This document shows positions 3,008 to 44,670 of a DNA stretch of 64,000 nt, piece after piece (position 1 is the first letter of the stretch; every line of letters starts with the position of its first letter). The stretch is from Escherichia phage vB_EcoM_IME537, in sequence record NC_054921.1. One strand, given 5' to 3'. The notes under the pieces were generated by a model, which did not search any database, was not told the DNA's origin, and worked only from the letters and a program-made list of their open reading frames with translations. Made by a program: the position numbers and the translations under genes.

Positions 3008-3025
3008 AAAGGGCCGAAGCCCTTT
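3008..3025 (-). other. intercistronic C(UUCG)G hairpin followed by U-rich tract (terminator or RNA stabiliser)
   Basis: AAAGGGCCGAAGCCCTTT between genes 45 and 44. Confidence 0.4.
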
Positions 3026-3026
3026 A

Positions 3027-7694: not shown

Positions 7695-7717
7695 TATATC
7701 AAACTCCGTATAAAGCT

Positions 7718-7735
7718 AAAGGGCCGAAGCCCTTT
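7718..7735 (-). other. C(UUCG)G hairpin overlapping the a-gt stop
   Basis: AAAGGGCCGAAGCCCTTT. Confidence 0.35.
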
Positions 7736-8936
7736 ATTTTGTAATAATGTCAAACTGTTCTTTAAAGCAGAAGCTTGAATCTTGGTGCTGATACAAAAAT
7801 TCATAAGCTTTTTCACGTTCACGGTCATAAAGAGCTCGGTCAGATGACAGTTCTTTAATACGTTCAAATGTTGATTCCATGTCATTTTCATCAAACCAAA
7901 CGATACCGCTATCGTGCGAAATTAATGGAGTATTATCAACACGGAATTTTAAATTTTCGCCAGTAGATTTCCAAAATACTGGAATTGTTCCACATGCACC
8001 AAGCTCGAGATGAGTATATTCTAAAGAACGCTGTAGATATTTTTTATCTAATTTACTCAGCTGATAACCAAATCCGGATTTACTCATGCGTTCAAGCATT
8101 TCGCTATTTACATAACGGTCGAGAATTTGCGTCGGCAAATTAGGAGCAATTTTAATTTGGTCTACTTGATGAAGACGATAATACTCGTATGGAATTCCTT
8201 TTTCTTTAATAGGAATGAACGCTGGAGAACGTTCCAGACCTTCCATAATAGTACTTAGTCCTGCAGGTTTAAGATGTTTTTCGTGAAAATCAAACATCTG
8301 ATAAAAGCCTTTCCATGTAGTAGTACGACCAATCCAACGATTGATATTCATGTTAATTTCAGAAACATCTTTCCAGTAGGTTGATCGAACCTTCGCAATA
8401 TCCATGGGAGGCTGAAAGTTATATACGGTCGGTGCTTCTTCAATATCATCAAATAGAGAAACAGTTTCCGGATACCATTCTTTCATCAGAACTTTATTAA
8501 AATCACCATTATCAGAATGGCTAAAAATAACATCAGCCCGACGAACAGTTTCTTCTAATCCCAAATTTCGACGCAAAGAAAGAGAAGAATGGTCATGCTG
8601 ATAAACTACAACACGAACCGAAGGTTTAATGTTATCAATAATTTTTTTATAGTTATTAATGGTGTCTTCTTCAACTGAAGTAGCAGGAACTGAATTGATA
8701 ACTAGAATATCACAATCATTTACCAGCTTAAGCGTTTTATCGTATTCTTTTGCCAATAAAACCGGAATTGAAAATGATTTATAATCATGCGCGCAATTAC
8801 GAGTAAATGATTTATCTTTAGCATAAACCAAAGTTACTTCATGACCATTTTTAATAAACCAATCACGCTGCTCAAGAGAAAATTTAGTTACACCGCAACC
8901 TTCAAGACCTCGAGCCATAAAAATGCATACTTTCAT
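7734..8936 (-). CDS. a-gt: DNA alpha-glucosyltransferase
   Basis: 400-aa ORF; close to remembered T4 a-gt sequence. Confidence 0.9.
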   Translation of the reverse strand: MKVCIFMARGLEGCGVTKFSLEQRDWFIKNGHEVTLVYAKDKSFTRNCAHDYKSFSIPVLLAKEYDKTLKLVNDCDILVINSVPATSVEEDTINNYKKIIDNIKPSVRVVVYQHDHSSLSLRRNLGLEETVRRADVIFSHSDNGDFNKVLMKEWYPETVSLFDDIEEAPTVYNFQPPMDIAKVRSTYWKDVSEINMNINRWIGRTTTWKGFYQMFDFHEKHLKPAGLSTIMEGLERSPAFIPIKEKGIPYEYYRLHQVDQIKIAPNLPTQILDRYVNSEMLERMSKSGFGYQLSKLDKKYLQRSLEYTHLELGACGTIPVFWKSTGENLKFRVDNTPLISHDSGIVWFDENDMESTFERIKELSSDRALYDREREKAYEFLYQHQDSSFCFKEQFDIITK

Positions 8937-11319: not shown

Positions 11320-11357
11320 ACATTATCCTCAATTGCATTAAAATTTTATTATCCAAA

Positions 11358-11373
11358 AAGGGCCGAAGCCCTT
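11358..11373 (-). other. C(UUCG)G hairpin followed by U-rich tract
   Basis: AAGGGCCGAAGCCCTT. Confidence 0.4.
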
Positions 11374-11572
11374 ATTTAAATTGTTTGGCACCCTTCCAGC
11401 CTTCGTACATCATTGCGGCTGATATTAATATTGCCCCTGAACAGCTTGAATATTTGTGATTCCAAAACCAGTTCAGAAAAACTTCGTCATCAATACCTTG
11501 GGCTATCATATTTTCAAAGAACTGACGACGAGCTTCGGCAATTCGTTGTGATAATTTAGATTCAGGATTCAT
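11372..11572 (-). CDS. hypothetical protein
   Basis: 66-aa ORF, ATG start. Confidence 0.45.
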   Translation of the reverse strand: MNPESKLSQRIAEARRQFFENMIAQGIDDEVFLNWFWNHKYSSCSGAILISAAMMYEGWKGAKQFK

Positions 11573-13748: not shown

Positions 13749-15024
13749 TGGTGTTTAACCCTATGCATGATTTCTTTATTTTTGCCGAGATTAAATCCGC
13801 GTTCATTCGGATTTCCCAAATAACCACAAGTTCTTCTTATTGTGTTCATCTTTTTAGGATCAGTTTCTCCACAAACAGAACAAACAAATCCGTTTTCAGT
13901 AGGAGTCATTTCATGGGTACTTCCGCATGTAAAACATTTATCTACTGGCATATTAACACCAAAATAATCTAAATGTTGTGCAGCATAATCCCATACAGCC
14001 TCAAGACCTTTTAGGTTATTTTTCATATCAGGAAGTTCAACATAAGAAATGTGACCACCTGTCGCAATGAAATGATATGGGGCTTCGCGAGAAATCTTTT
14101 CAAACGGAGTAATATTTTCTTCTACTGAAACGTGGAAACTGTTAGTGTACCAGCCTTTATCAGTAACATCCTTTACACTTCCATATTTTTCGGTATCAAG
14201 TTTACAGAAGCGATAGCACAGGTTTTCAGCAGGTGTAGAATACAAACTAAAAGCAAAACCGGTTCTTTCAGTCCACTGCTTAAGATGAGCATTCATTTTA
14301 GTTAAAATTTCTTGTCCAATATCACGACCGACAAGAATATTCAATTCGTGAATACCAATGTATCCTAAGGACACTGAACTTCTACCGTTTTTAAATAACT
14401 CAATTATATCGTCATCAGGTTTAAGACGAACCCCGAATGCGCCTTCTTGGTAAAGAATAGGAGCAACAGTAGCTTTAACTCCTTTTAAGGAACTAATTCT
14501 ACACATCAATGCTTCAAAACATAAATCCATTCGCTCATTGAACAATTCGGCAAATTTCTGTTCATTGAACTGTGTTCCAATATAAGAATCTAACGCAATG
14601 CGAGGAAGATTCAGTGTTACAACACCAAGATTATTACGTCCATCAAGAATTTCATTACCAGTCGAATCTTTCCATACACTCAAGAAACTACGACAACCCA
14701 TTGGAGAAACAGGAATAGATGAACCGGTGATAGCTTTATTGTTCTTAGCCGAAATGATGTCAGGATACATTCTTTTGCTTGCACACTCTAGAGCAAGCTG
14801 CTTAATATCATAGTTCGGATCGTCTTTATAAAGATTAACACCTTCTTCAACGAACATAACAAGTTTAGGGAAAATAGGAGTTATCCCATCACGACCGAGA
14901 CCTTTAATACGATTTTTCAGAATTGCTTTCTGAATCATTCGTTCAGTCCAGTCAGTTCCCGTGCCAAATGTAATTGTTACAAAAGGCGTTTGTCCATTAG
15001 AGCTGAAAAGTGTATTTACTTCAT
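13745..15024 (-). CDS. nrdD: anaerobic ribonucleoside-triphosphate reductase NrdD, exon 2
   Basis: open frame continues upstream of the track start; predicted 3' splice site after G at 15025; C-terminal glycyl-radical region. Confidence 0.8.
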
Positions 15025-16069
15025 CATTATATTCAGCATGAGTCGCAAATTCATGCCCGTTTATATGAAACAACAAAATTTGGATAGTCCATAGATATGC
15101 AACGTTCTTTTATAGTGCTAGGATGAAAATTTAGCGCTTTAGCTGCTTCTATATAAGACGTATACTTAATACCGTCAACAACCACATATTCAGGAACTTT
15201 ATGAATAGTAGTCTTAATACTCAAAACAAGAGGATGAGTTTCGACTTCACTTTCAGTGCAATTTAAATATTCCGCTGCTTTTTTAAAACTTCTAAAAGTT
15301 TTATTTTTAAGCTTTATCGATACTTGTTTTTTACTTTTTCGACTATTGATATTATTTTGCACATGTTCCTTAGATCTTCCGTTTTTAGCATAATATTCAG
15401 CTACAGAAGATTTTATATTGTTTTTATGAGATTCGGATAACACTTTACCCTTATGAGCATCTCTTAATTTTTGAATATGTTCTTCAGTATCCGGATGCTT
15501 ATAAAACTTTTTACCGCCTATGGATTTATTTAAACATTTTTTGCTATAAAAATATTTACGTATGACCTCTTCTTCATGTTTTAATGCATCTTTATAACTA
15601 TCAAATGTTTTTAAAATTATCCATTTAGTAGGTGTATCAGTTTTTAAGCGTTCATTTATATACTTAGATGACGTTGTGTAAGTTTTCCAGTTTGTGGGCT
15701 TGTTTTTAATTGTTCTAAATTTTTTATAACCGATATAAATGTCGCCATTAGAAAACTTAACTAAGTATGTAAATGCGTCTTTATCTTTTATTTTAGTACA
15801 ACGTCTTTTTATCCATTTCATTGTTTCACCTCGTATTCATAAGATAATCTTATTTATACAAGATGACTGCTGCATGTCGCCATGCAGATTAGACTATATC
15901 TTCATCTTTCGATGCCGGCCGTTTCGAATAGCATTAGCTTCTATTCTACACCGCTACATTCATCACGGTTAGTCGTTAGGCATTTAGTTCAAAAGAACAT
16001 TTAGCACGGGATTGTCTACTAGAGAGGTTCCCCGTTTAGACCGGTTTTACATGAGCCTGAATTAAATTA
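15025..16069 (-). mobile_element. group I self-splicing intron in nrdD carrying a homing endonuclease ORF
   Basis: splits nrdD; exon 1 ends in U, intron ends in G; contains I-TevII-like ORF. Confidence 0.8.
15051..15821 (-). CDS. I-TevII: intron-encoded GIY-YIG homing endonuclease (I-TevII-like)
   Basis: 256-aa ORF with its own SD GAGGTGA; N-terminal GIY-YIG-type motifs (DIYIGYKK). Confidence 0.8.
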   Translation of the reverse strand: MKWIKRRCTKIKDKDAFTYLVKFSNGDIYIGYKKFRTIKNKPTNWKTYTTSSKYINERLKTDTPTKWIILKTFDSYKDALKHEEEVIRKYFYSKKCLNKSIGGKKFYKHPDTEEHIQKLRDAHKGKVLSESHKNNIKSSVAEYYAKNGRSKEHVQNNINSRKSKKQVSIKLKNKTFRSFKKAAEYLNCTESEVETHPLVLSIKTTIHKVPEYVVVDGIKYTSYIEAAKALNFHPSTIKERCISMDYPNFVVSYKRA

Positions 16070-16607
16070 ACTCATAAGCTTGGAATGCATCGTATACGTC
16101 TTTTTCTGTTTTAGATTGGGCATAATTCAATGCATCAGCGATTTGCCATTTTTCTGCATCCTCAATATGTTTTGCATAGGTGCGTTTAACATAAGGAGAA
16201 AGTACTTTATCTACATTCGCAAAAGTCGTTCCGCCATATTGATGAGAAGCAACCTGCGCAGTAATTTGTGCCATAATTGCAGTAGCAACGCCAATTGATT
16301 TAGGAGTTTCAATCTGCGCATTACCAAGCTTAAATCCGTTCTCAAGCATTCCTTTTAAATCTACTAAACAACAATTAGTAAATGGAAGAGCAGGGGAATA
16401 ATCAATATCGTGGAAATGGATAATTCCGCTTTCATGCGCTTTCATAATAAAAGACGGGACCATATTTTTGGCAATGTGTTTAGACACAATACCAGCCATA
16501 AGGTCCCGTTGAGTTGGAAAAACACGAGAATCTTTATTAGCATTCTCGTTTAAAAGGTCTTTATTAGTTTTATGAATCAATCCTTCAATTTCTTTTTCAA
16601 TTGTCAT
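16070..16607 (-). CDS. nrdD: anaerobic ribonucleoside-triphosphate reductase NrdD, exon 1
   Basis: ATG 16607; joined with exon 2 gives 605 aa across junction AYE|YEVNTL. Confidence 0.8.
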
Positions 16608-19985: not shown

Positions 19986-20037
19986 GTTCTTCTCACTTGG
20001 TTAATGATTTATACTCCGAGCCATCCTTGGCTTTAAA

Positions 20038-21039: not shown

Positions 21040-21096
21040 ATTAATCTCCTCAGTAGAAAGTAAGAACATTATACCACATCCTTGTGGTAAAGTAAA

Positions 21097-22119
21097 CTAG
21101 TTCAGTGCATTTAGTGCATTGTTCAGTTTAGAACGTTGCTTCGTGAGATTTTTGACTTTTTCTTGAGCTTTTTCTAGCATCTTTTCAGCTTCTAGCACTT
21201 CATTAGTTGCTTTAACGAGTTCATCATCTACTGCCTTGATAGACTTCTCAATCGCATCTGCATGCCATTTTTCAACAGGTTTAAGACTCGGATTTTCAAT
21301 AGGAAGAAAATTCACTTTATTGAATTTCCATGCATCTTTATTACCTGAACTATACATCCAAAATTTAGGATCGTTTGATGAGTAATTGGATAAATTTAAG
21401 TTATCTTGCACTTCCTGCTTTTTCTCTTGTGTGACTTCGTCCTTTCTCAAAAAATCGTATTTAAATGAAACGATCATATCAAGTTCATATGTTGTTGTAT
21501 GTTCCCAATTTCGCTCAAAATGAGGTAAAATCTTAGACTGAACAGCGGCAACAACATCCATATACTTAAATGCTTCTGTTAACTGCGATTTAAGGCATTC
21601 ACAAATTGAAAGAGAATTTTTTGTATTAGGTTTAAAGCTAATTCGTGCAGTTCTATTATTTTCTTTTAATGGTCTTACTTCCATCTGAAGAGTATAACCA
21701 TCAAATTTCAGATTCTTTAAGTTAATATCAGAACCTTTTAATCGACTCGCAGTTGATAAAATTTGTTTTAATTGTTTACGGAATAGAGCAATAAATCTCC
21801 ATTCAATACGATAATGATTTGGATTGAAAAATCCAGATGATAAATCGACCTTACTTTGACCGACGCCTTGAACAAATAGAGGATTTTTATAATCAATAGT
21901 TTTACAGAAATCGGTGAGCTGCTCACGAGCCGTCATTTGCGTAATATACCCTGCTTCGCTAAAATTACGCACCCATTCACCGCTATTCGTATACTTAAAG
22001 TGATGAATAACACGATTAACTTTATCAGGGTCTAAATTATTTTCACACAAAAATGTCATAACATCACGGGTATAGCTGGCATTACGAACCATATCTTCAA
22101 TTTGAGAACGAGTTTTCAT
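21097..22119 (-). CDS. paralog-family protein 3 with C-terminal coiled coil
   Basis: 340 aa; SD AAGGAA; core FRKQLKQILSTASRL. Confidence 0.6.
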   Translation of the reverse strand: MKTRSQIEDMVRNASYTRDVMTFLCENNLDPDKVNRVIHHFKYTNSGEWVRNFSEAGYITQMTAREQLTDFCKTIDYKNPLFVQGVGQSKVDLSSGFFNPNHYRIEWRFIALFRKQLKQILSTASRLKGSDINLKNLKFDGYTLQMEVRPLKENNRTARISFKPNTKNSLSICECLKSQLTEAFKYMDVVAAVQSKILPHFERNWEHTTTYELDMIVSFKYDFLRKDEVTQEKKQEVQDNLNLSNYSSNDPKFWMYSSGNKDAWKFNKVNFLPIENPSLKPVEKWHADAIEKSIKAVDDELVKATNEVLEAEKMLEKAQEKVKNLTKQRSKLNNALNALN

Positions 22120-22127
22120 GGTGTTCC

Positions 22128-23015
22128 TTAAGATTTAAGTAAATCAACAATTTTAATTAACTTTTCACGCTCAGATTTAGCTTTACTACTCAATCCAGAT
22201 AGTCTGAAAATTTCATCATCATATTGCTGAATAGAAATATTTAGCTCTTCAATTTGCTTATTAAAATAATCAATTTGTTCAGAATGTTTTTCGTTACTAC
22301 GAACTGGTACAGGTTTTGTAGGCAATTTAGTTGAACTGGATTCATCCGGGCGATAAATTAAAATACAACTTGAACCAATCGGACATTTAGCACCAGACAC
22401 ATATTCTAATGTTCCGGCTTCTTTTAAAACTTCAAAAGCTAAACAGAGATGATGACCCATATTGGCATAATCTGTAGAGTGAGCTCTGATGTAATAATCA
22501 TCTCCACGAGTACTAAATTTAAAGCATTTAAGGTCTTCTGTATTATTGGTCTTAAAAATCATTTGTTTATCTAGACCTTTAGCTAATCGAGCGCCTAATG
22601 CTAATAATCGTCGTTGATTTTTCCACAAATCCGCAATCATTTGATCGAATGATAATTTTGGCATTAGTCGACCATAAAGGTCATATCCTTTATTATAATT
22701 ACGAAGGATTTCACTCGCATTAATGCGAGACAACGCTCCAATTTTATTAAGGGCTTTCATAATGCGTTTAGATAAAAGCATTCCAGACCCGTTTGGTCGC
22801 TGTAAATGTTTTTCTAATCCAAATCCAATATCAACTTTAAACTTATCTAAAATTTCGGCATGAACATCTTTATCAATAACATTCAAATCCAAAGTTGGGT
22901 TAAATCTATGAAAAAATTTATCTGGCTCTCCACGACGAAGTACAGTCCATTCATTTGATTTTTTATTAACTAAAGATTTAATTACTGCATTGACATTATT
23001 AATTGCTACTGACAT
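22128..23015 (-). CDS. paralog-family protein 4 with C-terminal coiled coil
   Basis: 295 aa from ATG 23015 with SD GAGGAA; core NQRRLLALGARLAKG. Confidence 0.55.
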   Translation of the reverse strand: MSVAINNVNAVIKSLVNKKSNEWTVLRRGEPDKFFHRFNPTLDLNVIDKDVHAEILDKFKVDIGFGLEKHLQRPNGSGMLLSKRIMKALNKIGALSRINASEILRNYNKGYDLYGRLMPKLSFDQMIADLWKNQRRLLALGARLAKGLDKQMIFKTNNTEDLKCFKFSTRGDDYYIRAHSTDYANMGHHLCLAFEVLKEAGTLEYVSGAKCPIGSSCILIYRPDESSSTKLPTKPVPVRSNEKHSEQIDYFNKQIEELNISIQQYDDEIFRLSGLSSKAKSEREKLIKIVDLLKS

Positions 23016-23022
23016 ATTTTCC

Positions 23023-23430
23023 TCACTCAATTTCAATTTTACTAAATACACAGAATATGATTGAACAGACTACATAAGCACCGCACACAGATTGAACTAA
23101 TACCATCCCAAAGAACCAAACAATATTATCAAACAGTGTCTGTTTTACGTCGAAAGGACGTAAACTTACAGTAATATTATCACCTTTTTCTATTGAAGAA
23201 TACATCTCTGGGGAAATATATTCACTAAATCTATAACCGTCTTTGAGTTCATATACAGCAATAAACGATAAACTAGACCCTTTTCCTTGTGTTCCTGTAA
23301 TGGTATTAACTACAGTAACATCATAATCTTTATAATGCATATAATCATTAATTGCGTAATAACCGTATGCAATTGCTATACATAAACAACATATCAATAA
23401 ATTCAATCTTTTAATTATCAACTGTTTCAT
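23023..23430 (-). CDS. membrane protein
   Basis: 135 aa; hydrophobic N-terminal and C-terminal segments. Confidence 0.5.
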   Translation of the reverse strand: MKQLIIKRLNLLICCLCIAIAYGYYAINDYMHYKDYDVTVVNTITGTQGKGSSLSFIAVYELKDGYRFSEYISPEMYSSIEKGDNITVSLRPFDVKQTLFDNIVWFFGMVLVQSVCGAYVVCSIIFCVFSKIEIE

Positions 23431-23485
23431 AATAATCTCAATTAAAAGGGCTTAGAACCATTATACCATCCTTGGTATAAAGCAG

Positions 23486-24013
23486 TTATGCGAGTACCGT
23501 CTTTAACCGTTCTTCAAACTTCCGAAGAGTATTTTGGCGTTCAGCTCTTTGCTTTTTGTAAGTTTCAATACGCTCTGAAATGAGAGTGTATCGTTCATTT
23601 ACTGATTCTTTCATAAAATCAGGAATTTCACGAGAAGCTTTAATCTCGTCAAATTTATCAATAACAGCTTGCTCTTCAGCAATTAAGTTATCATACATTA
23701 AAATATCTTTCTTGATGAACTCAATATCTTCTTGAGTTACACGAGATAATTTAGATGCTTTATCCTTTTTGTACTGTTCGTTAGTATCACGAGACCAGTG
23801 TAATGTACGATTTTTATTCGTATTTTTGTAAATTTCTACAATACCGATCTCATCAATAATAACGATCCAATTCCAACGGGATTTGTAAATTTGTCCTCCA
23901 TCAACAATGATTTCACCTCCGATTGAGATGTCGTTAAAGAACTTGCTTTGTGCTTCAGATTTAAATTTACCATCGTTGTAATTTACCAGGTTGAAAATAT
24001 CTTTAGCGTTCAT
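23486..24013 (-). CDS. hypothetical protein
   Basis: 175 aa; early promoter directly upstream. Confidence 0.5.
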   Translation of the reverse strand: MNAKDIFNLVNYNDGKFKSEAQSKFFNDISIGGEIIVDGGQIYKSRWNWIVIIDEIGIVEIYKNTNKNRTLHWSRDTNEQYKKDKASKLSRVTQEDIEFIKKDILMYDNLIAEEQAVIDKFDEIKASREIPDFMKESVNERYTLISERIETYKKQRAERQNTLRKFEERLKTVLA

Positions 24014-24041
24014 TTTCTGTTCCTCCGTAGTTGATAGTTGT

Positions 24042-24071
24042 ATAGTACCACAGAGGAACAGTCTTGTAAAC
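24042..24071 (-). promoter_or_regulatory. sigma70-type early promoter (-35 GTTTACA, -10 TACTAT with TG extension)
   Basis: transcript strand GTTTACAAGACTGTTCCTCTGTGGTACTAT. Confidence 0.55.
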
Positions 24072-24073
24072 CA

Positions 24074-24388
24074 CTAAAAGAAACTTCTTTCACAATTTTT
24101 TCCACTGAACCATGCGCTCACTGCTTTCTTAGTCTCAGGAGCAGTGTTATCCATAAACCATTCAAAGGCAGCCTTTTTATGATTCTGGAGGGCTTCTCGG
24201 GCTTTAATCTGCTCACGGTCTATTAACACTAACATATGAGCCTTTCTTGTCACCATGGGCTTCTTATGATTTTTTGAATACTCCCAGTCATTTGTCCATC
24301 GCATTGTCGTTGCGAACTGAAATACTGCTTCTTTAATTTTAGTTTCGTAAATTTCACGAGCCTTTGAGTATAACATCACTACCTCCAT
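24074..24388 (-). CDS. hypothetical protein
   Basis: 104-aa ORF, ATG start. Confidence 0.45.
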   Translation of the reverse strand: MEVVMLYSKAREIYETKIKEAVFQFATTMRWTNDWEYSKNHKKPMVTRKAHMLVLIDREQIKAREALQNHKKAAFEWFMDNTAPETKKAVSAWFSGKNCERSFF

Positions 24389-24458
24389 TCACCAGTTTAA
24401 TTCTAGTCATCTTTTTAATGGCAGTCCATATAATCTATTTCTGAACTGCCTTTTTGTC

Positions 24459-25178
24459 TTAGGATTCTTCTAAATGTCTTTTCTGAAAAGTTGATACCAT
24501 ACTACGATACGGTTCATTTGGATATCCGTGTTTTATAGCTTCCTTTGTAAATTTTCTCCATCCATATTTAGTTTCTTTCCAAAGCTCGAATAATTCATCT
24601 TCATACTGCCATATAGTTAAATGAGAACGCTTTGCAGCTTTAATTCCATTAATATGCTTTTCTTTTACTGCAGGATTGCTTAGTTTCTTTTTAATAATAT
24701 TACTAACTTTTCTAACAAAAACTGGGTCCTTATATCGTTGCGAAGTTTTTATTGAAGTGTTTAATTTAGCTTCCGGCGTGGATGTAACCTCTTTCATCTT
24801 TTTCTTCATATGCTGTATATGATTAGGATTTTTCCATAAATTTATAGAATGCTTTTTGCATTTTATCCTAGTTTCATCTGCAACCTTTCCTCCTTCACCC
24901 CCGTATGACAGGTTAACACAGTTTTTTCCATATTTCAATTTACCTGCCATGATATATAATATTTCAGCTTGTACCATTTTATCATAATTATCAAAAACTT
25001 CTAAAACCGTTTTTGATAATATGTGGTCATTTGACACTTTTACACGTTCTATATAATTTCCACTACCAACATACGAATCATTGATGTTATTAGTTATATG
25101 TCGACCATAATAGTATTTCTTAATACCTGTCTTTAAATTTAATATTTCAGTTTTATAGATAGTAAAATATTTTTTCAT
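24459..25178 (-). CDS. free-standing Seg-family GIY-YIG homing endonuclease
   Basis: 239 aa; N-terminal GIY-YIG-like motifs and GGEGG, as in the segB product in this window. Confidence 0.65.
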   Translation of the reverse strand: MKKYFTIYKTEILNLKTGIKKYYYGRHITNNINDSYVGSGNYIERVKVSNDHILSKTVLEVFDNYDKMVQAEILYIMAGKLKYGKNCVNLSYGGEGGKVADETRIKCKKHSINLWKNPNHIQHMKKKMKEVTSTPEAKLNTSIKTSQRYKDPVFVRKVSNIIKKKLSNPAVKEKHINGIKAAKRSHLTIWQYEDELFELWKETKYGWRKFTKEAIKHGYPNEPYRSMVSTFQKRHLEES

Positions 25179-26143
25179 TTTAATAATACCGTTTCAGCAA
25201 TTTCTTCCCAACCGTTTTTATCGGTCATAATAAAGTCAGCAAGATAAAGAGCAGTACGCAGTGAAACATTGCGTAAACGATTAACATTGACTTTCATCCA
25301 TGATAATGCTTTATAAGTTTCTTCATCAGAAAGACCGCGCTTTTGCATCATGTCGGTTGAAAGAATAACATCTTCAACCCTGACCATAATTTCTTCATTA
25401 GTGTGAACACCCAAATCCAAATAAACTGAGCGGGATACTAATGCTTGTAAATGTGGAGCAAGTTTAGTACCACGGTCTAATTCGCGGTCAATGTCAACGT
25501 TTGTGATAAAAACAATCGTTCCTTTAAATTCAAACTCACGCTCAATGCCTTTTTCTTCTAAGTAAGAAGATGCAGTGCTCCAGCAGACTTTACGGGTCTC
25601 TCCAGTGTCCAGAGCGGCTTTTAGAAGATTAAGAATGTCCATATCAGAGAAAACATCCACATCATCAATCAAAAGGACAGAATTCTCTTCACGATTATTC
25701 CAAAGTTGTTCATAAAGACCGATACCGGAGATTTTACCGTTAATGCTTTTATATTCAATGTATCCATTATCATTTGCTTTATTCAAAGCTTTATCTAAAG
25801 AATACGTTTTACCAATACCTGCTGCACCAGAGATAATTAATGAACGAATGTTTCCGTTAATAATACCATTCGTCATCATTCCCATAACATTAAATCTTTT
25901 ATTAATGCGGGTTTTCATATCTTCATATGATTCTTTAACTTCTTCAACTTTTACACCATCATATGAAATGTCTGATTTGTAAACCCAAACACCGCGACGT
26001 TTACCGTCAATTTCAACAAAAACTTTACCATCTCCTTGTGCATCTACCGGAGCATTATCTGGGAACCATTCACCTAAGAGCTCAAAAGTTCCAGAGATTT
26101 CTTTACCGAAGTAGATACCCTTATTGATAGTTACAGTTTTCAT
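25175..26143 (-). CDS. P-loop NTPase (AAA-like)
   Basis: Walker A GAAGIGKT, Walker B VLLIDDVD; start set to ATG 26143 with SD GGAGA. Confidence 0.6.
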   Translation of the reverse strand: MKTVTINKGIYFGKEISGTFELLGEWFPDNAPVDAQGDGKVFVEIDGKRRGVWVYKSDISYDGVKVEEVKESYEDMKTRINKRFNVMGMMTNGIINGNIRSLIISGAAGIGKTYSLDKALNKANDNGYIEYKSINGKISGIGLYEQLWNNREENSVLLIDDVDVFSDMDILNLLKAALDTGETRKVCWSTASSYLEEKGIEREFEFKGTIVFITNVDIDRELDRGTKLAPHLQALVSRSVYLDLGVHTNEEIMVRVEDVILSTDMMQKRGLSDEETYKALSWMKVNVNRLRNVSLRTALYLADFIMTDKNGWEEIAETVLLK

Positions 26144-26179
26144 TTTATTCTCCAATTTTACATTTGTTTTGATAGGGTA

Positions 26180-26209
26180 ATAGTATCACACTACTACCCT
26201 GCTGTAAAC
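26180..26209 (-). promoter_or_regulatory. sigma70-type early promoter within an inverted repeat
   Basis: GTTTACA-N17-TACTAT; flanked by GATAGGGTA / TACCCTGC. Confidence 0.5.
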
Positions 26210-26212
26210 AAT

Positions 26213-26476
26213 TTATTTTAATGTTCGCCAAATTTTTACTGCTTCGCGACGAGATACTTCTACAGCTCCAAGTTCTACAGCTTTTTGGCGTCGCCGAGCG
26301 TGTAAGTCATAATGTTTAATGCGTTTATCTTGAAACCAAGAACGTTTCATTCCTATTGCTTCTGCCATTTCGTGAAGCTCTTCAATATCTCCATCAGTGA
26401 ACATATGACAATTTTTAGTTGGATGACCGCGAAGTTTCCATCCATGATTCATTAAAACATCTACGTAAACTGTCAT
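26213..26476 (-). CDS. small conserved protein, DUF4031-like (recalled motif only)
   Basis: 87 aa; GWKLRGH...EELHxxAxxIG...WFQ...HYDL pattern. Confidence 0.45.
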   Translation of the reverse strand: MTVYVDVLMNHGWKLRGHPTKNCHMFTDGDIEELHEMAEAIGMKRSWFQDKRIKHYDLHARRRQKAVELGAVEVSRREAVKIWRTLK

Positions 26477-26622
26477 TGATTCTTCTCCAAATAAGTTTCG
26501 ATAATTTTCTGAGCGAGATAAACTGCATTATCTTCAGTTGCATCTTCTAAGAAACTTTCAAAACACTCTGAAATTTCTTCTGTGTCAATCAACTTTTTTA
26601 CTTCAATTGGTGTAATTTTCAT
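26473..26622 (-). CDS. small acidic hypothetical protein
   Basis: 49 aa from ATG 26622; the track's N-terminal extension spans a hairpin. Confidence 0.3.
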   Translation of the reverse strand: MKITPIEVKKLIDTEEISECFESFLEDATEDNAVYLAQKIIETYLEKNQ

Positions 26623-26687
26623 TTTGTTTTTCCGTTTAAGTGTTTGTTTTGATAGTTGTATAGTACCATAAGCCCGAAGGCTCCCTA

Positions 26688-27701
26688 TCATTTATAATAA
26701 CTTCGGTGGTTTTCAAGATAGACCTTCTCAAGGAAGTCATCCCAGAAACTCATGTCTACTGTTTTAGGCATACCGTTCTTAGAAGCTTCAGTAGATGCTG
26801 CTTCTACTTGATCGACCACATCTTCCAAAAACTCTTGAACCGTTTTAAATGGATGTTTACCCAACTTCACGTCAAGAATAAATGGAGCGTCTTGAAGTGG
26901 ATAAACCAAGTCACCAGTTTTGTAAATTTCCAATAGTTGAAGTCCACCACGACAAGCATGGCTCAGAGCTTTCCAGTCAATACCTTCGTTGGCTTCGGCC
27001 TTACGGGCACGTTCACCATATTCAGCATCTAATTTGTTCAGTGACTGCTTAAGCTCAATAAGAGAAAGCGTTGTCTGATATTTACGACCCAACACAGTGT
27101 AGAACATTTGCGGGCCTGTTTTCTCATAATTATGGAACACCCATTCACAGAACTCGTTTTCTGGAAGACGATGCTTAATATCTTCAACTTTAGTGCGACG
27201 AAGTCTATCAGGGATTCCTTCTTGATAGTCGACCCACTGGTCAGGGATTTGATTAACTACTTTCAATACATCACGTAATGCGGCCAAACGAGAACCCTTG
27301 ACACCGTATTTAGAAGCTTGCTTACGGACATATCCTAAATAGGATTTCATGTTAGTCGTATAAAAACGAGAACGGTTGTCTTGAATAAACTTCCACACAT
27401 CAGGCAAATCAGATTTAACCACTAGCTCAGGTGGAGTGTGAAGCATATCTAATGCTACAGTTTCACCATCTGCTGCTAATTTAAAGAAATACTTAAGACT
27501 GTATAGTTCATGGTCAATATCATCTTTAGTGTTTTTAGATGATGTGTTGTTAGTGTTTTTACTCATGTGCTCTTTAACGTTTCCAATAAGAATATCACGA
27601 GCAGGAGGAACAAAGATTTCTTTAAAATCTACATCAGATTCTGGTGTAGAAGTTCCATAAAGATGACTACCAAAATAACTTTTCATTACTGTTTTCATCA
27701 T
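26688..27701 (-). CDS. Pol-beta-superfamily nucleotidyltransferase, specificity unknown
   Basis: 337 aa; N-terminal GS-x10-DVD motif (GSHLYGTSTPESDVDF) and a downstream acidic residue (ALDMLH). Confidence 0.55.
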   Translation of the reverse strand: MMKTVMKSYFGSHLYGTSTPESDVDFKEIFVPPARDILIGNVKEHMSKNTNNTSSKNTKDDIDHELYSLKYFFKLAADGETVALDMLHTPPELVVKSDLPDVWKFIQDNRSRFYTTNMKSYLGYVRKQASKYGVKGSRLAALRDVLKVVNQIPDQWVDYQEGIPDRLRRTKVEDIKHRLPENEFCEWVFHNYEKTGPQMFYTVLGRKYQTTLSLIELKQSLNKLDAEYGERARKAEANEGIDWKALSHACRGGLQLLEIYKTGDLVYPLQDAPFILDVKLGKHPFKTVQEFLEDVVDQVEAASTEASKNGMPKTVDMSFWDDFLEKVYLENHRSYYK

Positions 27702-29232: not shown

Positions 29233-29499
29233 TTAATCCTTTTTATTGGCACGAATTTGTTCTAAAATTTTAGAATATTCCTTTGTATCAGATTTACGTA
29301 CAATTGATACACTATAAGGCATACTATCGGTGTCTTTTATAAAGCGTTCCAAATGACACTCTAACAAAATTTCTGGATTATAAATCGTGTACATCAAATT
29401 ACCTGTTGCTCCACGATATTGGCAGATTTCTACTGATTGAACACCATTCCATAATTTTGTTAAAACTAAATCACCTACTTCTAATTTAGGAAAGCCCAT
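29233..29499 (-). CDS. hypothetical protein
   Basis: 88 aa from ATG 29499. Confidence 0.4.
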   Translation of the reverse strand: MGFPKLEVGDLVLTKLWNGVQSVEICQYRGATGNLMYTIYNPEILLECHLERFIKDTDSMPYSVSIVRKSDTKEYSKILEQIRANKKD

Positions 29500-29500: not shown

Positions 29501-29686
29501 TTATTCACCAATTAAAGTTTCAATATAAGAATCAAGATTTACTTTAGCTTCTTCCATAAGAGTTTTGTATTTAATCTTGTTAGCATGTCCGGAGAAAGCT
29601 GATTCATCAATAATTGTTGATGTATGAACAGCTTTACTATACGTCTCAATTAATTCTCTTAATTTAAAAGCCTGCTCACTTGTCAT
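29501..29686 (-). CDS. small hypothetical protein
   Basis: 61-aa ORF, ATG start. Confidence 0.4.
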   Translation of the reverse strand: MTSEQAFKLRELIETYSKAVHTSTIIDESAFSGHANKIKYKTLMEEAKVNLDSYIETLIGE

Positions 29687-30639: not shown

Positions 30640-30676
30640 CGGTAAAATGAAAAAAGTCTCCCGAAGGAGACTAATG

Positions 30677-34794: not shown

Positions 34795-34853
34795 ATTATT
34801 CTCCTCTTAACTGATAGAAAAATTATACCACAGTCAAGAGGAAAAGTAAACAG

Positions 34854-36991: not shown

Positions 36992-37465
36992 TTATTTGAA
37001 CGATTTAACGTACTGAATAGAACCTTTACTATTCACGAAAGCGATTTTACCATTTTTATTATACATGGTAGCAGTACGCTGATAACCATAAGTTTGTTTA
37101 CCAGATTGATAACCAACTAATGCGAAATTATCTTCACCCATTTTATTCTGTTTAGCGCGAATACGTTCATGTCCATGCGCCATAAGAACCTTAGCATCAC
37201 CAGTTGCAATGGATCGACGAGTTTTTTCATCTTCAACTGTATTAACAAAATCATCAAATGAATCAAATTTAGCATGAGATTTATTATACAGTTTTCCATC
37301 TACTGCATAATTATATCCCTGTACATCCATCTCAACTTCTGTACCATCATCTAATACAGCAGTAATTTTCTGTCCTTTTTTAAATTTCAAAAGATCAGTA
37401 AAAGATTCAGCAATAATTTGAGAATTAATAGCTGCTTCAGTAATAAATTCTTGATATGTTTTCAT
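36992..37465 (-). CDS. internal-protein-like gene with N-terminal capsid targeting sequence (ipII/ipIII locus)
   Basis: 157 aa; N-terminus MKTYQEFITEA matches the T4 internal-protein targeting sequence. Confidence 0.65.
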   Translation of the reverse strand: MKTYQEFITEAAINSQIIAESFTDLLKFKKGQKITAVLDDGTEVEMDVQGYNYAVDGKLYNKSHAKFDSFDDFVNTVEDEKTRRSIATGDAKVLMAHGHERIRAKQNKMGEDNFALVGYQSGKQTYGYQRTATMYNKNGKIAFVNSKGSIQYVKSFK

Positions 37466-40315: not shown

Positions 40316-40334
40316 TCCTATTTACTCCAAGTAT

Positions 40335-40352
40335 AAGGGGCCGAAGCCCCTT
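40335..40352 (-). other. intercistronic C(UUCG)G hairpin
   Basis: AAGGGGCCGAAGCCCCTT. Confidence 0.35.
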
Positions 40353-40356
40353 ATCA

Positions 40357-40993: not shown

Positions 40994-41524
40994 TTATATC
41001 CCATTATTTGAGAGATGTAAACTATTTTTAATTTTACAAATTCGTTCAGCTTCATCGATAGCAGCATTAATAATGCTTTTAGCTATAGGAGTACTAATAC
41101 TAGTAGCTTTTACACTTAACACGATTTCTTTATCTTTACCAGGCCAACCCCACGATTTTTCACCGTGAGTGCCTTTAATTACAGCAGACACCTCAAGTGA
41201 GCATCCATTATCACATGTTTTTACATTAACAACCCAAGGGTCACTTTTCTCAATCGGTTTCTCAATCGGTTTATCCCAGTAAATATTAAGAATACGTGGA
41301 ACATCAAATTTGGCAGGACAAATCTTAACCGTAAGACCTTCGCTTTCTAGCCAATTAATAAGAGGGCGTTCATACAGGCGACGATGTGGGCTTGGGATTC
41401 GACAAGCCTTATGTCCGTTGCTTGCGGCTTCACTAAGCTGTTCTAATACCTGCTTTTGCATTATTGATAAAATACCATCAAAAGATCTTTCGGAAGTTTC
41501 ATTCAGTTCGGTATAAAGAGACAT
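40994..41524 (-). CDS. hypothetical protein
   Basis: 176-aa ORF, ATG start. Confidence 0.5.
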   Translation of the reverse strand: MSLYTELNETSERSFDGILSIMQKQVLEQLSEAASNGHKACRIPSPHRRLYERPLINWLESEGLTVKICPAKFDVPRILNIYWDKPIEKPIEKSDPWVVNVKTCDNGCSLEVSAVIKGTHGEKSWGWPGKDKEIVLSVKATSISTPIAKSIINAAIDEAERICKIKNSLHLSNNGI

Positions 41525-41579
41525 AACAGTTTCCTCAAATTATAGGCTCATAATATCTCAATCATGAGCCTATGTAAAC

Positions 41580-41843: not shown

Positions 41844-41886
41844 TTCATTCTCCAAGTTGTTTTCTGTATCAGTAGTTGATAGTTGT

Positions 41887-41916
41887 ATAGTACCATGGAA
41901 GAACAGAGATGTAAAC
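41887..41916 (-). promoter_or_regulatory. sigma70-type early promoter (-35 GTTTACA, -10 TACTAT)
   Basis: GTTTACATCTCTGTTCTTCCATGGTACTAT. Confidence 0.5.
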
Positions 41917-42053
41917 AGTTTTGTGAAAAAAAAAAATTTTAAAAAGTTTTGGGGAATTCTAGGGCAGGGAGGGGCAATTAAAAGATAGGATAATATATTA
42001 TAAAGGGTATAAACTAAATGATGCCTAGAGAGGTCCAAAAAGGCCTAGATACC

Positions 42054-42081
42054 AAAAAGCCCCAACCTTTCGGCTGGGGCT
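42054..42081 (-). terminator. rho-independent terminator, copy A of a direct repeat
   Basis: transcript AGCCCCAGCCGAAAGGUUGGGGCU then UUUUU; 8 nt downstream of the 42089 stop. Confidence 0.6.
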
Positions 42082-42088
42082 AAGAATG

Positions 42089-42562
42089 TTATTTAATTTG
42101 TTTAGCAGACCAAATGCGGTCTTTGATAATTTTTTGGATGTCTTCAACATACTCAAGAGAGTGAGCATGCGGGTTATCTTTGAAACTATAAGCACGAGCT
42201 AACTTTTGGCCTTCAGTTTTGATTACTAAAAGCTCTTTAAGGATAGCTTCATATTTAGAAATAATTCCTTTAACAATATTTTTTTCTTGTGCAGCTTTAG
42301 GATCTGCTTTAGGAGCAGGTTTACCCGAAGCCTTTGCAAAAGCAGCGCCAGTAGCAACTAAACTTTTCCAGGCCATACTAACTGCATTTCCCGTAAATCC
42401 TTCTGCTTTCATGTCGCGAGCAAACTGGAATCGTGATTCGTCAGAAGCATCTTTATAGGAATATTTACCCGCTGCAATGGCTGCTTTTGCGACAGCTTGA
42501 ATTTCGGTGCTAGATGCTTCATTTAACACCGCTTCATTTAAAAATTGAGCATATGATTTCAT
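42089..42562 (-). CDS. internal-protein-like gene with capsid targeting sequence, lying between two terminator repeats
   Basis: 157 aa; N-terminus MKSYAQFLNEA; late promoter upstream. Confidence 0.6.
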   Translation of the reverse strand: MKSYAQFLNEAVLNEASSTEIQAVAKAAIAAGKYSYKDASDESRFQFARDMKAEGFTGNAVSMAWKSLVATGAAFAKASGKPAPKADPKAAQEKNIVKGIISKYEAILKELLVIKTEGQKLARAYSFKDNPHAHSLEYVEDIQKIIKDRIWSAKQIK

Positions 42563-42599: not shown

Positions 42600-42607
42600 T
42601 ATTTATA
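42600..42607 (-). promoter_or_regulatory. late promoter TATAAATA
   Basis: TATAAATA on the minus strand about 38 nt upstream of the 42562 start. Confidence 0.5.
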
Positions 42608-42609
42608 CT

Positions 42610-42637
42610 AAAAAGCCCCAACCTTTCGGTCGGGGCT
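42610..42637 (-). terminator. rho-independent terminator, copy B of the direct repeat (end of tRNA/stable-RNA transcript)
   Basis: transcript AGCCCCGACCGAAAGGUUGGGGCU then UUUUU. Confidence 0.6.
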
Positions 42638-42640
42638 AAG

Positions 42641-43313: not shown

Positions 43314-43389
43314 TGGTCGAGGCAGTAGGGATCGAACCTACGACCTAGGACTTAGAAGGTCCTTGCTCTTCCTTCTGAGCTATGCCCCG
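43314..43389 (-). tRNA. tRNA-Arg: tRNA-Arg (anticodon UCU), CCA encoded
   Basis: hand-folded cloverleaf; T-arm GGTTCGATCC; anticodon loop CTTCTAA. Confidence 0.8.
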
Positions 43390-43392
43390 TAA

Positions 43393-44058
43393 TTAAAATT
43401 TCATTTTTCGACCTTTAAACCATCCTTCTGGAATTGGGTCAGTTTTCTTAATACGTTTAGAAACTTTTTCATCTAATGAATGAATCCACATCATACCAAA
43501 TTGGGAATTCTTTTCTCCTTTCTGGTGATTATTTTTAGCGTGAATTTCTTTCATTTTATTAATAGTTTCAGGAGTATGATGCTTATTTAAAAATCTGCTA
43601 TTATTTAAAAATTTTTCCTTGTATTCAGGAGTTGACCACAAACGTTTAAATACATTTGAACCAATTTTACGATATTTTTCTTGAAGTAAAATATCATTTT
43701 CAAAACGTGATTTAAACGATTTAGCTCCTTTTAAGCTAGCATCTTTCTTCTGGTTTAGCATCCCAGGAATATTTATATGGTCCCATCCACCTTCACCGCC
43801 AAGTTTTAAATTATACACATCTGGTCTATTTAAAAACTCTTCTGTGACAATATTTTTCTCGGCTTCAAGCATAGATTCTTTATCATCAAAATACTCTAAT
43901 ATTTCTTTAGAGAAATTTTCTATACCATACTTGTCTTGGGCTCTTTTTAATAATTTACCAGAACCCATATATCCATCATCTAAATTTTCGGTAGAATGCA
44001 CACCAATATAAATTTTATTATTAATTTTATTTGTTATTTTATAAGTGTAATGGAACAT
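43393..44058 (-). CDS. segB: GIY-YIG homing endonuclease SegB
   Basis: 221 aa; YTYKITNKINNKIYIG...GGEGG; embedded in the tRNA cluster as in T4. Confidence 0.85.
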   Translation of the reverse strand: MFHYTYKITNKINNKIYIGVHSTENLDDGYMGSGKLLKRAQDKYGIENFSKEILEYFDDKESMLEAEKNIVTEEFLNRPDVYNLKLGGEGGWDHINIPGMLNQKKDASLKGAKSFKSRFENDILLQEKYRKIGSNVFKRLWSTPEYKEKFLNNSRFLNKHHTPETINKMKEIHAKNNHQKGEKNSQFGMMWIHSLDEKVSKRIKKTDPIPEGWFKGRKMKF

Positions 44059-44099
44059 AAATATCTCCTATTTCTAAGAGTATTTATGTTCCCAAAATA

Positions 44100-44171
44100 T
44101 GGCCCTGGGTGGAATTGAACCACCATCTGGCGATTATGAGTCGCTTGCTTGAACCTTCCAGCTACAGGGCC
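44100..44171 (-). tRNA. tRNA-Ile: tRNA-Ile (anticodon CAU; lysidine-type assumed by T4 gene order)
   Basis: cloverleaf; T-arm GGTTCAATTCC; anticodon loop CTCATAA. Confidence 0.7.
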
Positions 44172-44177
44172 TTGATA

Positions 44178-44250
44178 TGCTGATTGACGGAATCGAACCG
44201 CCGACATCCTCATTACAAGTGAGGTGCTCTACCTACTGAGCTAAATCAGC
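44178..44250 (-). tRNA. tRNA-Thr: tRNA-Thr (anticodon UGU)
   Basis: cloverleaf; T-arm GGTTCGATTCC; anticodon loop CTTGTAA. Confidence 0.8.
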
Positions 44251-44257
44251 GAAATTA

Positions 44258-44344
44258 CGGAGGCGATAGGATTTGAACCTATGAGTCGCCGGAGCGACTG
44301 CCGGTTTTCAAGACCGGTGCATTAAACCACTCTGCCACGCCTCC
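44258..44344 (-). tRNA. tRNA-Ser: tRNA-Ser (anticodon UGA), long variable arm
   Basis: 87 nt; anticodon loop CTTGAAA; T-arm GGTTCAAATCC. Confidence 0.8.
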
Positions 44345-44346
44345 AG

Positions 44347-44420
44347 TCTCCGCGGCAGGATTTGAACCTGCGACATTCTGCTCCCAAAGCAGACGCTCTA
44401 CCAAACTGAGCTACACGGAG
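44347..44420 (-). tRNA. tRNA-Pro: tRNA-Pro (anticodon UGG)
   Basis: anticodon loop TTTGGGA; T-arm GGTTCAAATCC. Confidence 0.8.
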
Positions 44421-44432
44421 TAAATTAAATTT

Positions 44433-44504
<72 letters not shown>

Positions 44505-44509
44505 AAATT

Positions 44510-44596
44510 TGGTGCGAGAAGTGGGACTCGAACCCACAAGGAAATCATTCCGCAGCATTTTAAGTGCTGTGCCTTTACCAATTTGGCCATTCTCGC
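44510..44596 (-). tRNA. tRNA-Leu: tRNA-Leu (anticodon UAA), CCA encoded
   Basis: 87 nt with long variable arm; anticodon loop CTTAAAA; T-arm GGTTCGAGTCC. Confidence 0.8.
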
Positions 44597-44597
44597 G

Positions 44598-44670
44598 CTG
44601 GGAATAAAGGACTCGAACCTTTGCATCCTGGAATCAAAATCCAGTGCCTTACCAACTTGGCTAATTCCCA
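44598..44670 (-). tRNA. tRNA-Gln: tRNA-Gln (anticodon UUG)
   Basis: anticodon loop TTTTGAT; T-arm GGTTCGAGTCC. Confidence 0.8.

Follow-up and report, generated by a model that had tools for sequence, protein, structure and literature searches.

The stretch of DNA analysed here (the window) comprises 64,000 nt of Escherichia phage vB_EcoM_IME537 (NC_054921.1) and is a segment of a Tequatrovirus (T4-like) genome in which the early genes lie on the minus strand. Relative to the annotated T4 record it spans from gene 43 through the nrdC, mobD, rI, tk, vs and regB region and the denV, e, tRNA, ipI and 57B region to gene 5. A megablast search with positions 23000-27000 matched 768 phage records, the best of them at 98% identity. 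For the segment at 20-44 kb the nearest records are phages of the vB_EcoM_F1/RB51 type, which match 94-96% of the query at 95% identity, and PD112 (98.8% identity over 91%). The T4 GenBank record is without promoter features, and tRNAs were the sole matches in an Rfam search. The largest dispersed repeat families of the window are promoter modules, UUCG terminators, and leaders that span the Shine-Dalgarno sequence and the ATG.

The promoter modules were identified by motif scans. The preliminary description had listed at least nine minus-strand promoters matching GTTTAC(A/T)-N17-TA(C/T)TAT, and a scan of the window finds this pattern exactly nine times, always on the minus strand, where 0.01 matches would be expected. 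The published consensus of the PST/T4 PeSLs, TTTACW-N17-TAYWAT, has 14 minus-strand matches (15 if the spacer may be 16-18 nt) and no match on the plus strand of the window. A variant that requires TGn has 13 matches and adds the promoters at 37514 and 29824. For the T4-specific patterns, all or nearly all matches lie on the minus strand. A generic sigma-70 scan of the window did not discriminate in this AT-rich genome (90 matches compared with 82 expected), and the T4-specific patterns were used instead for this reason; the signal is specific to the T4 motif. Three intragenic matches were dropped, leaving 15 intergenic early-promoter modules, which take their names from the position of the first -10 base (see table).

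Most of the modules begin directly 3' of the stop codon of the upstream gene, and all lie on the coding strand. In 12 of the 15, a Shine-Dalgarno sequence and an ATG follow 20-45 nt downstream. The elements of T4 early promoters are present: GTTTAC from -36 to -31, ~17 nt of spacer, TGn, and TAnnnT as the -10 element. The upstream regions, judged by eye in the aligned sequences, also resemble those of T4 early promoters (e.g. ttttttttttcacaaaactGTTTAC and aaataatttcacaaagttGTTTAC). In ASO78A, the sites orthologous to those of nrdC.8 and nrdC.10 were independently annotated as resembling the T4 early promoter GTTTAC(N14)gtggTAttaT. The match to the T4 consensus, the position on the coding strand and the ASO78A annotation support the earlier reading of these elements as early promoters, and agreement with the consensus suggests that they are active.

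Two classes of long identical core recur among the modules. The class-A core, an 18-mer (GATAGTTGTATAGTACCA), occurs exactly at 24033-24050, 26651-26668 and 41878-41895, with 0.02 such occurrences expected by chance, and a copy with two mismatches is found at 30601. The class-B core, a 19-mer (GATAGGGTAATAGTATCAC), occurs exactly at 26171, 45639 and 45937 (0.00 expected by chance). Both sets of repeats had been noted before and are exact, although the third class-A copy had been placed at 41877 and the last two class-B copies at 45640 and 45938. Each T4-like genome carries 5-8 copies of the class-A core, which stands before at least 11 different genes; the spacer and leader segments form mosaic combinations.

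Early-promoter modules, associated stem-loops and accessory cassettes of the window
Feature	Position	Strand	Identity and promoter elements	Stem-loop	Predicted fold
P12216	12211-12240	-	early promoter upstream of the 55.6 homologue	no hairpin; terminator ~110 nt upstream	
P21073	21068-21097	-	nrdC.4 early promoter	small spacer hairpin CCACA-AGGA-TGTGG	z -1.8
P24047	24017-24071	-	nrdC.8 early promoter; GTTTAC 24071-24066; TACTAT 24047-24042; class-A core 24033-24050	arms 24047-24061 and 24017-24031; inverted repeat of 15 nt, 87% complementary; 3' arm covers Shine-Dalgarno GGAGG	-23.2 kcal/mol, z -6.3, 0/200 shuffles
nrdC.10/11 accessory cassette	26156-26670	-	leader, 49-aa ORF (26473-26622), 87-aa DUF4031 ORF (26213-26476) and P26185; PHROG 6888, PHROG 4887, PF13223		
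P26185	26174-26209	-	class-B promoter, drives nrdC.10; 3' end of the two-ORF cassette	arms 26190-26200 and 26174-26184; 11 nt, 91% complementary	-16.4 kcal/mol, z -3.3
P26665	26651-26690	-	promoter remnant; nrdC.11 stop 26688-26690; TGG-TACTAT 26660-26668; class-A core	GAGCC-TTCG-GGCTT, 26670-26683	
P29824	29806-29848	-	mobD.2 early promoter; -10 TATAGT	-10-centred hairpin	-19.0 kcal/mol, z -4.25
P30615	30610-30672	-	mobD.5 early promoter; class-A core with two mismatches	no -10-centred hairpin; upstream terminator 30655-30672 (minus strand), canonical UUCG, then T-run	
P34827	34799-34851	-	regB early promoter	arms 34831-34845 and 34799-34813; inverted repeat of 15 nt, 87% complementary; 3' arm covers Shine-Dalgarno GAGGAG	-21.6 kcal/mol, z -6.0
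P37514	37495-37538	-	early promoter of Ip4-like internal virion protein (36992-37465); -10 TAGTAT	perfect 8-bp inverted repeat, AACTGTGA/TCACAGTT, flanking the -10 element	
P40998	40993-41022	-	e.6 early promoter; carried at 3' end of the e.7-replacing gene	no hairpin	
P41555	41542-41579	-	early promoter of the RB32ORF130c-like gene (40994-41524) replacing T4 e.7	arms 41561-41573 and 41542-41554; 13 nt, 92% complementary	-18.1 kcal/mol, z -4.55
P41892	41878-41916	-	e.8 early promoter; class-A core	no significant hairpin; terminator 42058-42081, ~140 nt upstream	
P45653	45639-45677	-	class-B promoter; trna.4 early promoter	perfect 9-bp inverted repeat, GATAGGGTA/TACCCTATC, around GTGATACTAT	-16.4 kcal/mol, z -3.4
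Internal-protein cassette	45661-45935	-	internal virion protein gene 45678-45911 (PHROG 8111) and P45653		
P45951	45937-45975	-	class-B promoter; early promoter of the internal virion protein gene	5' arm diverged (ATGGAGT); hairpin weak	
P46281	46266-46305	-	early promoter of Ip5-like internal head protein (45988-46245, PHROG 3499)	arms GATGAGGTA/TACCTCATC	-17.4 kcal/mol, z -4.55

The class-A copy at 26651 had been taken for a possible promoter remnant with a hairpin where the -35 element should be. That hairpin is present, and the full module is kept in T4, RB32, RB51, PD112 and the IMG/VR phage L024, which bears out the remnant as well. In these five phages the stop codon of nrdC.11 is followed first by the terminator GGGAGCC-TTCG-GGCTCCC-TTTTTT, then by an AT-rich UP region, GTTTACA, the spacer AGCATAAAGCTTTATGG, and finally TACTATACAACTATC. 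In the window and in ZN18, 52 bp are missing between GGGCT/ and AAGCT/. This deletion joins the truncated hairpin to TATGGTACTAT, so that the T-tract, the UP element and the -35 element of P26665 are all lost. The alignment with the intact relatives establishes how the remnant arose, and by this comparison the hairpin at 26651 represents the shortened nrdC.11 terminator and did not arise as a new structure. ZN18 shows a deletion of this kind at a further locus (L018 compared with L020).

Recombination between modules is visible at the internal-protein locus. The cassette there is bounded by an identical 21-nt core (45637-45657 and 45935-45955). RB51 and PD112 are without the cassette; on the window side the gap spans 274 bp, and in the relatives the flanking alignments overlap by 24 bp. 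Both phages carry a single hybrid promoter in which the 5' half corresponds to P45951 and the 3' half to P45653. Sequence comparison places at this locus the excision or insertion of a cassette between two PeSLs. The nrdC.10/11 cassette (515 bp, block ends 26155 and 26671) is missing from T4, RB51 and RB32, and stands in place of 11 bp between CTATCAA and TTGGAGAATAAAATG. It occurs once per genome in 155 phage records, compared with the 768 that match the surrounding region. This replacement accounts for the different promoters of nrdC.10, which are class-A in T4, as also in RB32 and RB51, and class-B in the window.

Further junctions are found at the e.7 and Ip4 loci. T4 and the window share P41555 as far as GAGCCTATA, the end of the 3' arm, and then continue into different genes, each of which carries its own e.6 promoter; in ZN18 a deletion fuses the two regions. 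At the Ip4 locus the relatives diverge just 3' of the 3' arm of the P37514 hairpin. L070 and L089 contain hybrid promoters in which the arms are mismatched. In the RB32 record a 43-bp direct repeat flanks Ip7 and Ip9, and in the records of both RB32 and RB51 another ORF is flanked by a 34-bp imperfect repeat.

The preliminary description had proposed that the repeats are substrates for the shuffling of accessory genes, with coincidence between repeats and synteny breakpoints as a check. Breakpoints were called against five relatives over 85 gene junctions. Breaks were found at 9 of 15 promoter junctions and at 30 of 70 promoterless ones (odds ratio 2.0), and as the Fisher test gives p=0.18, no enrichment is claimed. 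Nearly all breakpoints lie at gene boundaries, with or without a promoter, and none was found against the five relatives at the copies at 24033 and 30601. The promoter core was used in only one of six clean repeat-flanked indels. A second uses the two copies of a terminator hairpin (42049-42084 and 42605-42640), and other short homologies serve in the remainder; the repeat-flanked indels at nrdC.4, e.2, 17.3 kb and ORF 42089-42562 lie away from early promoters. The proposal therefore holds in that junctions lie inside modules at four loci, but not in the sense of a significant excess of breakpoints over other junctions. Taken together, the counts and the junctions indicate that the modules are demonstrable crossover sites, but not the main ones of the region.

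The similarity among modules might instead reflect convergence on an optimal UP/-35/TGn/-10 promoter, with the cores playing no part in gene shuffling. The T4 early-promoter consensus is unusually long, with conserved positions beyond the sigma-70 elements, and a C(T/C)ATC motif recurs near +1 even among promoters that are otherwise different. The lack of breakpoint enrichment at the level of junctions would also agree with this explanation. However, the cores form discrete classes (ACAACTATC and TACCCTATC) rather than a graded consensus, and the modules have non-consensus spacer and upstream sequence in common (85% identity over 48 nt, 80% over 71 nt). In addition, crossover points can be read within the cores, and one and the same gene is found behind different promoter classes in different phages. 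Convergence is thus an unlikely explanation, and the long identical cores are better attributed to common descent.

Inverted repeats of 8-10 nt had been reported to flank the -10 element in several of the promoters. They are borne out at 8 of the 15 modules, where they are centred on the -10 element and have arms of 8-15 nt that are 87-100% complementary. In seven of these the predicted RNA fold has a free energy of -16.4 to -23.2 kcal/mol (z -3.3 to -6.3), with 0 of 200 shuffles as good. When 60-nt segments were refolded, z was <= -3.1 in 8 of 14 modules, a value reached by 3% of 60-mers drawn at random from the same strand. The GTG...TAT wobble (G-U) pairs within these folds are partly forced by TGn and the -10 consensus itself. 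The fold is better in the mRNA sense than in the antisense for 12 of 14 modules, and the mean sense-antisense difference in z is -1.09 for the modules compared with -0.14 (sd 1.14) for random segments, in a set of modules that are paralogous and so not independent. The better fold of the sense strand favours a structure at the RNA level over a symmetric DNA cruciform.

This bias bears on the possibility that the inverted repeats act as DNA, where cruciforms or single-strand hairpins would stall forks or be cut by an endonuclease VII-like nuclease and so make the promoters recombination hot spots. Arbiol et al. speculated on a recombination protein that binds stem-loops (PMC2839356). Several of the junctions lie directly at the edge of the 3' arm, and both the 52-bp deletion and the second deletion like it end in a hairpin arm. 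A symmetric DNA structure, however, would not cause the sense fold to exceed the antisense beyond the composition baseline. Breakage is also similar in hairpin-bearing (5 of 8) and hairpin-free (3-4 of 7) modules, and the two most stable hairpins, those of nrdC.8 and regB, are without a breakpoint in the five relatives. The regB promoter and hairpin are unchanged in all five, bar one base upstream of GTTTAC in RB32. Action at the DNA level consequently appears improbable.

The arm sequences differ among promoters while the geometry is constant. A dimeric DNA-binding protein that used the inverted repeats as operators, and thereby shut off the early promoters, would fit the centring of the symmetry on the -10 element, and the shut-off of T4 early promoters is incompletely explained. 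The arms of the different promoters are, however, unrelated (CTGTTCCTC, GATAGGGTA, ATAGGCTCAT, AACTGTGA and TCCTCTTGACTG), and the loops vary from 4 to 17 nt, so that there is no common operator. The unrelated arms largely refute this idea, which is very improbable. In the class-B family, two compensatory pair changes separate the arms GATAGGGTA/TACCCTATC from the arms GATGAGGTA/TACCTCATC. A set of 55 class-B promoters, drawn from IMG/VR, metagenomes and five phages, shows that each type of 5' arm goes with its own type of 3' arm, bar a few evident hybrids. An IMG/VR scan with a 16-mer of the class-B loop returned mostly chance matches (promoter context in 6 of 110), and a longer pattern scanned against metagenomes was in promoter context in 55 of 77. 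This covariation, again among paralogous and non-independent sequences, is compatible alike with selection for pairing, with simple linkage and with templated quasi-palindrome correction.

In the original PeSL interpretation, the -10-centred hairpins would be terminators or attenuators of upstream transcription, and not elements of translation or stability. The stem-loop of an RB49 PeSL cut lacZ expression as strongly as rrnB T1 (PMC2839356), and WebGeSTer called the orthologous nrdC.10 hairpin of ASO78A a terminator. The distribution of hairpins and canonical terminators is also complementary. A separate upstream terminator accompanies none of the 8 hairpin-bearing modules and 3 of the 6 hairpin-free ones (30655-30672, 42058-42081, and one upstream of 12216); the chance of such a split is 20/364 = 0.055. 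This suggests that the -10-centred hairpin and the upstream terminator are alternative stem-loops. On the other hand, no U-tract follows any of the 8 hairpins, a terminator scan calls none of the 8, and their AT-rich stems differ from the G(n)/C(n) stems found in RB49. Given hairpins that are without a U-tract and uncalled by the scan, a terminator role like that in RB49 is doubtful, and for lack of the U-tract their identity as intrinsic terminators was rejected. Termination or attenuation of upstream transcription, taken more broadly, is possible but not probable.

Neither form of stem-loop is universal. P40998 and P45951 have no significant stem-loop, and three modules in all have neither hairpin nor terminator. 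As recombinants with broken arms also survive, the hairpin is not essential. The nrdC.8 and regB hairpins are the only 2 of the 8 in which the 3' arm pairs with the Shine-Dalgarno sequence. At both promoters the predicted +1 falls within the loop or where the 3' arm begins, and the Shine-Dalgarno sequence is therefore predicted to be hidden in read-through transcripts only.

The explanation that best fits these observations, with a probability of roughly 80%, is that T4-type early promoters read by sigma-70 form PeSL cassettes together with their stem-loops, and that these are copied and recombined with their accessory genes. Host sigma-70 RNA polymerase would read the modules through an AT-rich UP element, the GTTTAC -35 element, the 17-nt spacer, TGn and TA(C/T)(A/T)AT, each module being followed directly by a small early gene with its Shine-Dalgarno sequence and ATG. 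A typical cassette would consist of a leader, one or more genes, and the promoter for the next gene. The modules were probably duplicated and recombined along with the genes that they drive, such as those for the internal virion proteins, the e.7 replacement and the DUF4031 cassette. The likely pathway is crossover in short conserved patches, namely the -10/+1 core, the sequence just after +1, or the patch formed by the Shine-Dalgarno sequence and ATG.

The stem-loop of such a cassette would take one of two alternative forms, a UUCG terminator upstream of the -35 element or an inverted repeat centred on the -10 element. Because a transcript from the module's own promoter starts in the loop or the 3' arm, the -10-centred form would fold only in read-through RNA, where it may insulate the cassette at the RNA level by attenuating or marking that RNA. 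For nrdC.8 and regB, burial of the Shine-Dalgarno sequence would restrict translation to own-promoter transcripts. It can tentatively be proposed, at less than even odds, that the -10-centred hairpins in general are RNA-level insulators that give each early cassette autonomy and that own-promoter transcripts escape. The folded read-through RNA would then either hide the Shine-Dalgarno sequence, as in nrdC.8 and regB, or be protected or processed by a structure just 5' of the RegB-sensitive GGAG. If this is true, the hairpin would substitute for an upstream terminator, and the cassettes would be insertable into any early operon.

The label 'PeSL-like' in the preliminary description was accurate. 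The consensus is that of the published PST/T4 PeSLs, and the PeSL subclasses described in the literature include one whose stem-loop overlaps the -10 element. The layout also corresponds, with the upstream stop codon at the 5' end and the Shine-Dalgarno sequence and start codon at the 3' end. As for the stem-loop, it is -10-centred in 8 of the 15 modules, represented by a canonical upstream terminator in three more, and truncated in the remnant. Since these sequence-level features are present and earlier papers describe them, the finding is correct and already known. What the present analysis adds is the descent of the remnant from a full module through deletion, the absence of a statistically significant excess of breakpoints at the promoters of this region, the complementarity of hairpins and terminators, the bias towards the sense-strand fold (a hint of action in the mRNA sense), and the two early promoters, of nrdC.8 and regB, that lie inside predicted hairpins hiding the Shine-Dalgarno sequence.

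PeSLs were defined in RB49 and phi1 by Arbiol et al. in 2010 as a strong early promoter of the sigma-70 type with an AT-rich upstream region and a stem-loop, most commonly located between -35 and -10 or overlapping -10; promoter and terminator activity were shown experimentally, and mini-circles were formed (PMC2839356). The modules of the window resemble these in being composites of promoter and stem-loop, and the RB49/phi1 system likewise exchanges PeSL-ORF cassettes between direct repeats, including by a mini-circle route (PMC2839356). The RB49 promoters, however, are near-perfect TTGACA/TATAAT, with G(n)/C(n) stems that are working terminators (PMC2839356), whereas the modules of the window have GTTTAC as their -35 element and AT-rich stems that vary in sequence and have no U-tract. 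The T-even elements were regarded by Arbiol et al. as analogues, not homologues, of the RB49 PeSLs (PMC2839356).

The closer counterpart is the set of PST/T4 PeSLs reported by Comeau, Arbiol and Krisch in 2014, with the consensus TTTACW-N17-TAYWAT and degraded ('1/2') copies beside indels (PMC4122927). These agree with the modules of the window in phage group, consensus, AT-rich upstream sequence, stem-loop, 3' Shine-Dalgarno sequence and start codon, adjacency to indels at individual loci, and the presence of degraded copies (PMC4122927). According to the figure legend their stem-loops are just upstream of the promoter (PMC4122927), whereas the commonest form in the window is -10-centred. Their degraded forms retain the -35 element (PMC4122927), in contrast to the remnant at 26651, of which the -10 element and a truncated stem-loop are all that is left. 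The first observation of repeats at the internal-protein loci is traced in these papers to Repoila et al. 1994 (cited in PMC4122927 and PMC2839356). As far as that work is represented there, its T-even internal-protein loci are the modules at 45.6-46.3 kb and 37.5 kb of the window. They are alike in having a conserved early promoter before each internal-protein gene, a common N-terminal leader, and internal-protein genes that vary in number and identity among phages, with no substantive difference apparent from that account.

Promoters embedded in hairpins are also known from T4, where they take part in controlling the translation of e, soc, 49 and I-TevI (Uzan and Miller 2010, PMC3014915). 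For P24047 and P34827 only, the predicted behaviour is alike: a long transcript buries the Shine-Dalgarno sequence (-22 to -23 kcal/mol), and the transcript from the embedded promoter is without the 5' arm. The embedded promoter of the T4 genes is late (TATAAATA) and provides temporal control (PMC3014915), while that of the window is of the early type, and 6 of the 8 hairpins of the window do not touch the Shine-Dalgarno sequence.

The window can serve as a worked example of how T4-like phages pack accessory genes with expression signals and swap them at short regulatory patches. Because internal virion proteins are injected effectors, this is relevant to the turnover of genes for host range and anti-defence. 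Small accessory genes also travel with their own expression signals in morons and integron cassettes. The window differs from these in having no integrase or attC, exchange apparently taking place via short homology in regulatory sequence, and the orientation and G+C content of its cassettes match the rest of the genome.

Two segments of the window that vary among the relatives lie away from the promoter modules (T4-type early promoters with an associated stem-loop). The first is a 239-aa ORF between nrdC.9 and nrdC.10, which the RB32 and RB51 annotations describe as a homing endonuclease, seg-like in type. It is absent from T4 and PD112, with block ends (alignment breakpoints against the relatives compared) at 24462 and 25194-25196, and its insertion site is not at a promoter module. 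The second is a ~440-bp segment containing two small ORFs, which is present in PD112 and absent from T4, RB51, RB32 and ZN18. Its junctions fall where one gene abuts the next, and no promoter module is present there.

The 157-aa ORF (PHROG 2280) is flanked on either side by a 36-bp direct repeat whose two copies are 92% identical. The repeat unit is an intrinsic terminator hairpin, AGCCCC..GAAA..GGGGCT followed by a T-run. The ORF is missing from T4, whose alignments on the two sides share a 35-bp overlap. The boundaries of this cassette are terminators, not promoters. Terminator hairpins with a UUCG tetraloop also form a dispersed family, located 3' of several genes, which is the second largest repeat family in the window after the promoter modules. 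In addition, a small AGGA-loop hairpin is repeated in three nrdC intergenic regions, just upstream of a -10-like element; the promoter contexts of these three hairpins include one of middle type and one of late type.

Features of the window, with coordinates
Feature	Coordinates	Sequence or content
AGGA-loop hairpins	19986-20037, 21068-21097, 23431-23485	GCCA-AGGA-TGGC, CCACA-AGGA-TGTGG, ACCA-AGGA-TGGT
UUCG terminator hairpins	3002-3027, 7712-7737, 11351-11376, 40329-40354, 1059-1086	GGGC-TTCG-GCCC
nrdD insertion	15024-16072	1047 bp
ORF in nrdD insertion	15051-15821	256 aa
seg-like ORF	24459-25178	239 aa
~440-bp segment	29229-29685	ORFs 29233-29499, 29501-29686
PHROG 2280 ORF	42089-42562	157 aa
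36-bp direct repeat	42049-42084, 42605-42640	terminator hairpin
tRNA cluster	43317-44670	eight genes, minus strand
trna.3 consensus match	45214-45241	16-nt spacer

The nrdD insertion aligns with T4 and is missing from RB51, RB32, ZN18 and PD112. It contains an ORF and a 240-nt gap that appears structured, and is presumably the counterpart of the T4 nrdD group I intron and its I-TevII-type homing endonuclease. No intron was called in it by Rfam at the gathering threshold. The tRNA cluster contains several block ends, and the tRNA set varies among the relatives, with 8 genes in T4, 9 in RB51 and 11 in ZN18. In RB51 a truncated segB lies between the tRNA genes.

A match to the early-promoter consensus within the coding region of trna.3 falls together with block ends (45234-45247), and at these the relatives have another N-terminal segment. 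This match may reflect chance or an old junction. In the T4-like contig L089 (IMGVR_UViG_2706796299_000001) the -10 core is duplicated in tandem (TACTATTACCTCATCAAGATACTATTACCTCATC), and at locus L070 the arms of a hybrid promoter belong to two different classes. These two cases look like footprints of slippage and crossover within the core. The T4 reference record AF158101 carries an ambiguous base (N) at ~30343, in the e.8/e.7 intergenic region, within the 5' arm of the e.7-promoter hairpin (GGCTNATG).
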